From a virus (lineage: Duplodnaviria > Heunggongvirae > Uroviricota > Caudoviricetes): DNA of 33,385 nucleotides. The translations under genes were made by a program, and so were the position numbers. The notes below the pieces were generated by a model. The model ran no database searches. It was given only the letters and a program-made list of their open reading frames with translations, and was not told the DNA's origin. The stretch lies in the IMG/VR virus record IMGVR_UViG_2565956726_000001; one strand, given 5' to 3'. Below are positions 1 through 1,302 of this stretch, one piece after another; within the stretch, counting starts at the first letter, position 1, and each line of letters opens with the position of its first letter.

Positions 1-57
1 CGCCAGGCTTCCGCTTATTTTGCGAAGGCGGAGTTCGACCGCCTCTGGAAAAAATGA
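1..57 (+). CDS. IS3-family transposase OrfA, C-terminal fragment (..[14 protein letters not shown])
   Basis: Frame-1 translation of 1-54 gives a typical IS3 OrfA tail; TGA at 55-57; start lies outside the window. Confidence 0.55.
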   Translation, partial: RQASAYFAKAEFDRLWKK

Positions 58-944
58 TGCCACTGCTGGATAAGCTGCGTGAGCAGTACGGGGTCGGACC
101 GCTATGCAGCGAACTGCATATTGCCCCGTCAACGTATTACCACTGTCAGCAACAGCGACATCATCCGGATAAACGCAGTGCCCGTGCGCAGCGCGATGAC
201 TGGCTGAAGAAAGAGATACAGCGCGTATACGATGAAAATCACAAGGTATACGGTGTGCGTAAAGTCTGGCGTCAGTTGTTACGGGAAGGTATCAGAGTGG
301 CCAGATGCACTGTGGCACGTCTCATGGCGGTTATGGGACTTGCCGGTGTTCTCCGGGGTAAAAAGGTCCGTACGACCATCAGCCGGAAAGCCGTTGCCGC
401 AGGCGACCGCGTAAACCGTCAGTTCGTGGCAGAACGACCTGACCAGCTGTGGGTGGCTGATTTTACTTACGTCAGCACATGGCGGGGCTTCGTCTATGTG
501 GCGTTCATCATTGATGTGTTTGCCGGATACATCGTGGGGTGGCGGGTCTCATCGTCCATGGAAACGACATTCGTGCTGGATGCACTGGAGCAGGCGTTAT
601 GGGCCCGTCGACCGTCCGGCACGGTCCATCACAGTGATAAAGGCTCTCAGTATGTATCGCTGGCCTACACACAGCGGCTTAAGGAAGCCGGATTACTGGC
701 ATCAACAGGAAGTACAGGCGACTCGTATGACAACGCGATGGCGGAGAGCATCAATGGTCTTTACAAAGCGGAGGTAATACACCGTAAGAGCTGGAAAAAC
801 CGTGCAGAAGTGGAACTGGCCACACTCACGTGGGTGGACTGGTATAACAATCGACGATTGCTGGAAAGGCTGGGCCATACTCCTCCGGCAGAAGCAGAAA
901 AAGCTTATTATGCTTCCATCGGAAACGATGATCTGGCAGCCTGA
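54..944 (+). CDS. IS3-family transposase OrfB (DDE integrase-core domain)
   Basis: 296-aa ORF with DDE-type motifs ([24 protein letters not shown]); begins inside the orfA stop region. Confidence 0.9.
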
Positions 945-986
945 GTTCACAGATAAAACACTCTCCAGGAAACCCGGGGCGGTTCA

Positions 987-1302
987 CAGAGTAAATCTTT
1001 GCCTCCGAGATATCTTTAAGCCTTATACCCTCAAAATGTTCAAGCCAGAACTCAATCCGGCTTTTATCTGAATCGAGAGATTTTTTATCAGCTTTTTCCT
1101 CAAGCCATCTTAGGCAGGCCTCTTCAAAAGTGACATCAGGTAAATCCCCTAGCTTTTCTACTCGCCAGAGTTCTGCTTTTCGCTTGTCGTGCAACTCCTG
1201 AGCTTGCCGCTTGTCCTTTGTGCCAAGAGATTCCTTAATTCGTTTCCCGCCCGGGAGCGAATACGAGGCATACCATATTTCATTTCTGCGGAAGAGTGAC
1301 AT
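987..1302 (-). pseudogene. int: Phage tyrosine integrase, N-terminal 105 codons only; interrupted by the IS insertion
   Basis: ORF start [33 protein letters not shown]... resembles DLP12/P22-type Int N-terminus; after codon 105 the reading frame runs into IS sequence. Confidence 0.8.

Follow-up and report, generated by a model that had tools for sequence, protein, structure and literature searches.

An IS629-type element splits the integrase gene intD of a lambda-like prophage at argU in Escherichia coli and probably prevents its self-excision

The window, which denotes here the whole 33,385-nt stretch of DNA that was analyzed, begins within an insertion sequence (IS) that interrupts the integrase gene of a lambda-like prophage. 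We consider it highly probable that an IS629-type element was recently inserted into intD of a prophage located at argU, that full-length Int was thereby lost, and that the ability to excise was lost together with it. According to the proposed mechanism, a 1310-bp IS629-type element would have transposed into intD at codon 105/106, duplicating CTG. The prophage resides at argU, the gene for tRNA-Arg(UCU), and the gene that was hit encodes a tyrosine integrase of the DLP12 type. As a consequence, the Phage_integrase domain is displaced by 1.3 kb and left without an in-frame start codon or a promoter of its own. Without Int, the prophage is predicted not to excise itself after induction, even though xis and cos, the repressor and lysis genes, and most of the genes for morphogenesis are intact.

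The first 986 bp of the window (positions 1-986, plus strand) constitute the right-hand part of an IS3-family element that belongs to the IS629/IS1203 isoform group and is probably 1310 bp long, so that its left 324 bp would be outside the window. The end of orfA and an A-run were found at about positions 1-56, upstream of orfB, and the start of orfA is outside the window, in part within a gap of the source scaffold. The orfB gene (positions 54-944, plus strand) encodes the catalytic part of a DDE transposase, a 296-aa protein with matches to Pfam rve (E = 8e-28), HTH_21, rve_3, and rve_2. Its product scored 314.6 bits against the NCBIfam model NF033516 ('IS3 family transposase'), the cutoff of which is 160. 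In addition, a complete ALIL pseudoknot was detected at positions 12-128 of the plus strand (Rfam RF01497, model positions 1-117; 120.2 bits, gathering score 50; E = 3e-32), and PGAP annotates this structure likewise in full-length copies of the IS. In the IS629/IS1203 group, ALIL promotes the programmed −1 frameshifting by which OrfA and OrfB are produced as a fusion. The right terminal inverted repeat (positions 962-986, plus strand), which ends ...GGGGCGGTTCA, agrees with the left end of the element at 23 of 25 positions. Both termini, TGAACCGCCCCGGG... and ...CCCGGGGCGGTTCA, were read in the source scaffold; they are imperfect repeats of the form 5'-TG...CA-3', and the last base of the element is exactly position 986.

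According to ISfinder practice, isoforms share at least about 95% nucleotide identity. The 986 bp of the window exhibited 99.9% identity to the full copy in strain G5 (retrieved locus L002, positions 2748-4057) and to copies from numerous plasmids of E. coli and Salmonella, and 96.6% and 96.0% identity (34-39 differences) to two copies from O157:H7. The closer of the O157:H7 copies (strain AC-3, 96.6%) is designated 'IS3-like element IS1203 family' by PGAP; the label given by PGAP to the IS of the window is 'IS3 family transposase', nothing more specific. It has been reported that sub-types of IS629 differ by 4-5% and that IS1203 and IS3411 are isoforms of IS629 (PMC3271280). Because an identity of 96.6% falls within this spread of sub-types and isoforms, 'IS629-like' is a fair label, with PGAP-named O157:H7 genome copies standing in for ISfinder reference sequences in this naming. 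An earlier note on the same DNA had already called the element IS3-family and IS629-like, and this is borne out by the NF033516 match, the ALIL pseudoknot, and the 96.6% identity to the IS1203-family copy.

The integrase gene adjoins the right end of the IS. The 5' fragment of intD (positions 987-1302, minus strand, 316 nt) consists of codons 1-105 plus 1 nt, and its translation matched the integrase profile phrog_10426 over residues 1-105 (E = 3e-69). These 105 residues are residues 1-105 of the intact IntD (387 aa), that is, the N-terminal part only, without the catalytic residues. The Phage_integrase domain (PF00589) corresponds to residues 184-355 of IntD and includes R215, H314, R317, and Y349. 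The entire domain, together with the R-H-R-Y residues, is encoded distal to the IS, outside the window. On the near side, the integrase frame continues into the IS as a 158-aa fusion ORF (positions 826-1302, minus strand), in which the 105 Int residues are followed by 53 residues from the antisense strand of the IS. This ORF is unique to the insertion allele, and an exact-sequence look-up returned one public contig, the source scaffold KI530678.1. Accordingly, no single polypeptide combining the N-terminal DNA-binding part with the catalytic domain is encoded by this copy. Since the copy in the window encodes only residues 1-105 and 53 unrelated residues, with all of the catalytic part beyond the IS, intD is a pseudogene, and these results demonstrate that full-length Int cannot be produced from it. 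Hypothetically, the 158-aa protein, which carries Int residues 1-105, may keep arm-site binding and interfere with related integrases.

The other side of the insertion was examined in the source scaffold (KI530678.1, E. coli GCA_000488135.1), which has the sequence of the window without a single mismatch over 11,302 bp (100% identity). Leftward of the window, the scaffold contains the left 208 bp of the IS, including the other terminal repeat (TGAACCGCCCCGGGAATCC...), and 851 nt of int 3' sequence. The tRNA-Arg(UCU) gene argU is located 15 nt past the int stop codon, an arrangement that recurs in K-12 and KK19-02, and fimZ and the sfm fimbrial genes are found beyond argU. The attL region, at the 3' end of argU, is included in the retrieved locus L003. 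On the other side, the retrieved scaffold DNA stops at the equivalent of position 41,944 of phage PhiR49_1 (PV340568.1, 45,270 bp), and attR is further out.

The near flank of the IS ends at nucleotide 316 of intD and the far flank begins at nucleotide 314, so that CTG (intD nucleotides 314-316, int strand) is duplicated. One copy of the duplication is at positions 987-989 of the window (minus strand), and the second is at the other end of the IS, outside the window. When the IS and one CTG were removed, an intD of 1164 nt was obtained that matched the uninterrupted gene of strain KK19-02 without a difference. Only the removal of 3 bp restored the 1164-nt gene; removal of 0 or 4 bp failed to do so. 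The reconstituted intD was also the same, with no differences, as the integrase gene of the isolated phage PhiR49_1, and the Int protein of phage Kati was 100% identical to the reconstituted IntD in a tblastn search. Compared with intD of DLP12 in K-12 (b0537, adjoining argU), it had 7 nucleotide and 3 amino acid differences, the DLP12 assignment being based on the K-12 annotation and on sequence identity. Target duplications of 3-4 bp are known for IS629 (PMC3271280). The CTG duplication and the exact restoration of the gene indicate that a single, simple transposition event of an IS3-family element took place.

The earlier note, made from the letters of the window, had described the integrase frame as intact for 105 codons up to an IS terminus at position 986, and this exact position was verified. 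It had also placed the catalytic C-terminal domain beyond the IS and outside the window, in agreement with the finding that residues 184-355 are encoded entirely in the distal fragment, and the 3-bp target duplication that it predicted is seen as CTG at both ends of the IS. Extension to the left, which it had proposed as a check, revealed the other end of the IS and the 3' part of int a short way to the left of position 1. The note had allowed that the upstream sequence might prove to be no IS; the scaffold shows the other IS end there.

The window starts immediately 3' of a 175-N gap inside the IS (positions 11303-11477 of the retrieved locus L003), and its last position, 33385, borders a gap of 1075 N in tail gene J (positions 11678-12752 of the retrieved locus L009). 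Because the window starts at a gap inside the IS, continuity across the element depends on scaffolding and on the matching duplication rather than on read-through. We therefore considered whether collapsed IS repeats, mis-scaffolding, or a rearrangement between two IS copies could have created the arrangement, and regard such an assembly artefact as extremely improbable. The N-gaps that bound the window, one of them inside the IS, would be in keeping with an artefact, as would the multi-copy nature of IS629-type elements in many E. coli, since short-read assemblies break at such repeats; for positions 1-3000 of the window, the median number of matching places per genome was 4, prophage sequence included. 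However, the contig sequence reads through both junctions, the junctions share the 3-bp duplication of a single insertion, and the flanks meet at the same position of intD and restore the gene exactly. Furthermore, a single base separates each of the two sequenced portions of the IS (208 and 986 bp) from the complete 1310-bp copy of strain G5, used as the reference for both, and the 116 bp that are truly missing at the 175-N gap fit an element of 1310 bp. Comparable insertions in intD are also present in complete genomes of other strains. The junction thus continues to be read as a genuine IS insertion.

In lambdoid prophages, Int recombines attL with attR to bring about excision, and Xis determines the direction. 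Since excision requires Int and only its N-terminal 105 residues can be encoded, the prophage should be unable to excise by itself. There is an experimental precedent for this expectation. In O157 Sakai, three lambdoid prophages with a disrupted int (Sp3, Sp11, and Sp12) had been predicted not to excise, and no circular forms of them were detected; circular forms of nine other prophages were detected after mitomycin C treatment (PMC2669165).

The prophage would still be mobile if a related integrase acted in trans or if the IS were removed precisely, for example by the IS-excision enhancer IEE, and this appears unlikely. An integrase in trans is conceivable in that some E. coli genomes have as many as 4 places that match the int-xis segment. 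On the other hand, neither a second integrase gene nor an iee gene was found in the 33-kb window and its retrieved 20-kb flanks. As a rule, a tyrosine integrase recognizes only its own arm and core sites, which also argues against complementation by a relative. O157 Sakai carries 18 prophages and many integrases, and yet its int-disrupted prophages were not seen in circular form (PMC2669165). As for removal of the IS, IEE promotes the excision of IS629 (PMC9943667), and IEE-mediated IS excision restored a disrupted lacZ in STEC O121:H19 (PMC9397093). Deletion of the IS and one CTG from the present sequence yields a perfect intD. The IS-bearing genome would be about 46.6 kb (45,270 + 1310 bp), which is smaller than the 48.5 kb of lambda and, given the packaging limits of lambda, packageable.

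As the two halves of intD are unmutated and flanked by a perfect 3-bp repeat, precise excision of the IS, aided by the transposase or by IEE, would restore the integrase. It is nevertheless quite improbable that the insertion acts as a reversible lock instead of a dead end, with precise excision restoring Int in a subpopulation. The preferred reading remains that the prophage is immobilized by the insertion in intD.

The excisionase gene xis (positions 1158-1529, minus strand) overlaps the start of int by 145 nt and is clear of the IS. It encodes a 123-aa helix-turn-helix protein, residues 1-116 of which were aligned with positions 2-117 of the 117-position profile phrog_2907 (E = 1e-45). The product also matched Pfam HTH_17, and its TIGR01764 score was just below the cutoff. 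In related complete genomes, PGAP shows a truncated xis (e.g., positions 12481-12543 of the retrieved locus L004). The PGAP reading of xis as a truncated HTH pseudogene of 63-66 bp was rejected, as the 123-aa ORF spans the excisionase PHROG. Other gene callers give xis as a 123-aa gene in two other loci (L011 and L019), and the pseudogene calls in the related genomes are therefore probably an annotation inconsistency.

An exact copy of the lambda cohesive-end 12-mer, GGGCGGCGACCT, representing cosN, was found at positions 17539-17550 (plus strand), 178 bp upstream of the gene for a Nu1-like small terminase subunit (position 17728). The repressor ORF (positions 5304-5978) encodes a Peptidase_S24 protein. 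The excisionase, the cos site, the S24-peptidase repressor, the lysis cassette, and the terminase are all intact. Outside the IS, the window showed 99.855% identity over 32.4 kb to the argU prophage of KK19-02, with 44 mismatches and 3 single-base indels, and 99.3-99.7% identity to PhiR49_1. PhiR49_1 is an isolated temperate phage that was propagated on ECOR13. The tail genes from Z to J exhibited 98.9% identity to those of phage lambda. Among the 46 CDS compared with KK19-02, 44 are intact, with 0-6 aa changes in each; one more, marked as frameshifted by PGAP in KK19-02, is the same in both prophages, and the exception is tail gene I.

Several features of the accessory regions were observed in addition. 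A small ORF at positions 4118-4429 (minus strand), annotated by PGAP as a 'frameshifted hypothetical protein' in KK19-02, PV16-126, and others, has the same sequence in the window; because it is unchanged relative to KK19-02, any defect there is common to intD-intact relatives. In the immunity region (positions 5304-6870), the ymfL-like protein (positions 6313-6870) is identical to that of e14-type elements at icd. The e14-type elements carry a different integrase, of the Arm-DNA-bind_1 type, and their ymfK- and ymfT-like products are equal in length to those of the window. These matches exemplify module exchange between lambdoid prophages. In exact-protein look-ups, yfdR and ymfL proved to be widespread, with 14,146 and 8,683 index blocks, respectively. 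As in DLP12, the Q antiterminator gene and the lysis cassette are separated by a gene for an OmpC/OmpD/NmpC-like porin (positions 12580-13662, minus strand), which is intact and differs by 1 aa from that of KK19-02.

One of the morphogenesis genes is probably defective. The lambda-type tail tip assembly gene I (positions 32350-33020, plus strand) carries a −1 frameshift, its G-run at positions 32725-32729 consisting of five residues (G5) instead of six (G6). The run is G6 in lambda, in KK19-02, and in all of the best RefSeq matches. PhiR49_1, which has a different I allele, was dropped as a reference for this run, and lambda and KK19-02 were used. The G5 allele cuts the protein short after about 134 of 223 codons. 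Addition of one G gives back a protein of 223 aa in which all but 2 residues are those of lambda gpI. The G5 allele is common to four separate assemblies (retrieved loci L006-L009), namely the source assembly, GCA_043944855.1, GCA_045174585.1, and GCA_001032735.1, and it is therefore probably real and inherited. With gene I frameshifted, the window does not contain a complete intact set of head and tail genes, and, judged from this allele, infectious particles may be beyond the reach of the prophage regardless of its integrase.

These results bear on several statements of the earlier note. Its view that the excisionase and cos are still present is upheld by the full-length xis and the exact lambda cosN 12-mer. 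That the structural genes look largely intact holds in so far as 44 of 46 CDS are intact; tail gene I, which is frameshifted, has to be excepted.

The frameshift raises the question of whether the prophage had already been disabled by the loss of gene I, the IS being a further step of ordinary decay. This reading is quite possible, though we hold it somewhat doubtful. The G5 allele truncates the gene I product, and its presence in four assemblies, against G6 in lambda, KK19-02, and the best RefSeq matches, speaks for inheritance and against a read error, even if an error in homopolymer length is still conceivable. The look-up of the fusion ORF located the IS allele in one contig only, and the distribution of the two alleles suggests that the frameshift is the older and more widespread change. 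A tail defect, however, acts on infectivity and not on excision, and it does not take the place of the effect of the IS on excision. We thus retain the IS insertion in intD as the change that accounts for the predicted loss of excision.

The exact restoration of intD indicates that neither half of the gene has been mutated since the insertion. Together with the 99.855% identity to a prophage with intact intD and the 99.3-99.7% identity to PhiR49_1, the lack of substitutions in the two halves suggests that the insertion is recent. The description of the prophage in the earlier note as recently immobilized fits these unmutated halves and the near-identity to the intD-intact relatives.

The exact int::IS junction was found in none of 5,426 complete E. 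coli genomes. Two records that spanned the whole 121-bp junction query had the IS at other positions of intD. In strain PV16-126 (O103:H2), an IS629-type insertion was present after intD nucleotide 415 (positions 2746-4058 of the retrieved locus L001), and in strain G5 one was present after nucleotide 812, with a duplication of AAC. The swine strain EL361 carried three copies, of which two interrupted intD and one was situated between int and xis (positions 1180-6080 of the retrieved locus L029). Independent IS629-type insertions were thus seen in three other strains, at no fewer than five further sites. A common orientation of the IS in intD, which three cases had suggested, was rejected because both orientations occur in EL361. 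In most of the argU prophages sampled, intD is intact. In O157, 62% of the IS629 copies are within prophages or prophage-like elements (PMC3271280). The recurrence of IS629-type insertions here could reflect a regional target preference or selection that retains a cargo-carrying prophage.

Both components and the phenomenon itself are already known, and the insertion is real but ordinary. Its significance is local: it offers a reason why a nearly complete lambda-like argU prophage is probably stuck in its host. The int::IS junction is a strain-specific marker, present in a single public contig. With respect to annotation, the two int fragments are best merged into a single pseudogene, with the IS bridged across the scaffold gap. 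More generally, the insertion adds a further case to the part played by IS629-type elements in prophage domestication in E. coli, which has been documented for O157 and other lineages.

In comparison with known systems, the IS resembles the IS629/IS1203/IS3411 group of E. coli and Shigella in the 1310-bp length of its 99.9%-identical full copy, in the orfA-orfB arrangement with a −1 frameshift, the ALIL pseudoknot, and the rve DDE transposase, and in its TGAACCGCCCC... terminal repeats, its 3-bp target duplication, and the tendency toward prophages; it differs in not being identical to the O157 copies. IntD is of the P22/SfII type, with 73.7% aa identity to Int of Shigella phage SfII. The prophage shares with DLP12 of K-12 the chromosomal site (fimZ - argU - int) and the int gene length of 1164 nt. 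In K-12, however, intD is unsplit and DLP12 is a 21-kb remnant, whereas the prophage of the window is nearly full length, with lambda-type head and tail genes, cos, lysis genes, and a repressor present. PhiR49_1 and the argU prophage of KK19-02 have the same gene order as the window, but intD is uninterrupted in both, and KK19-02 has the intact G6 allele of gene I. Finally, Sp3, Sp11, and Sp12 of O157 Sakai are likewise lambdoid prophages with a disrupted integrase; they differ from the prophage described here in their attachment sites and integrases and in having many more defects.
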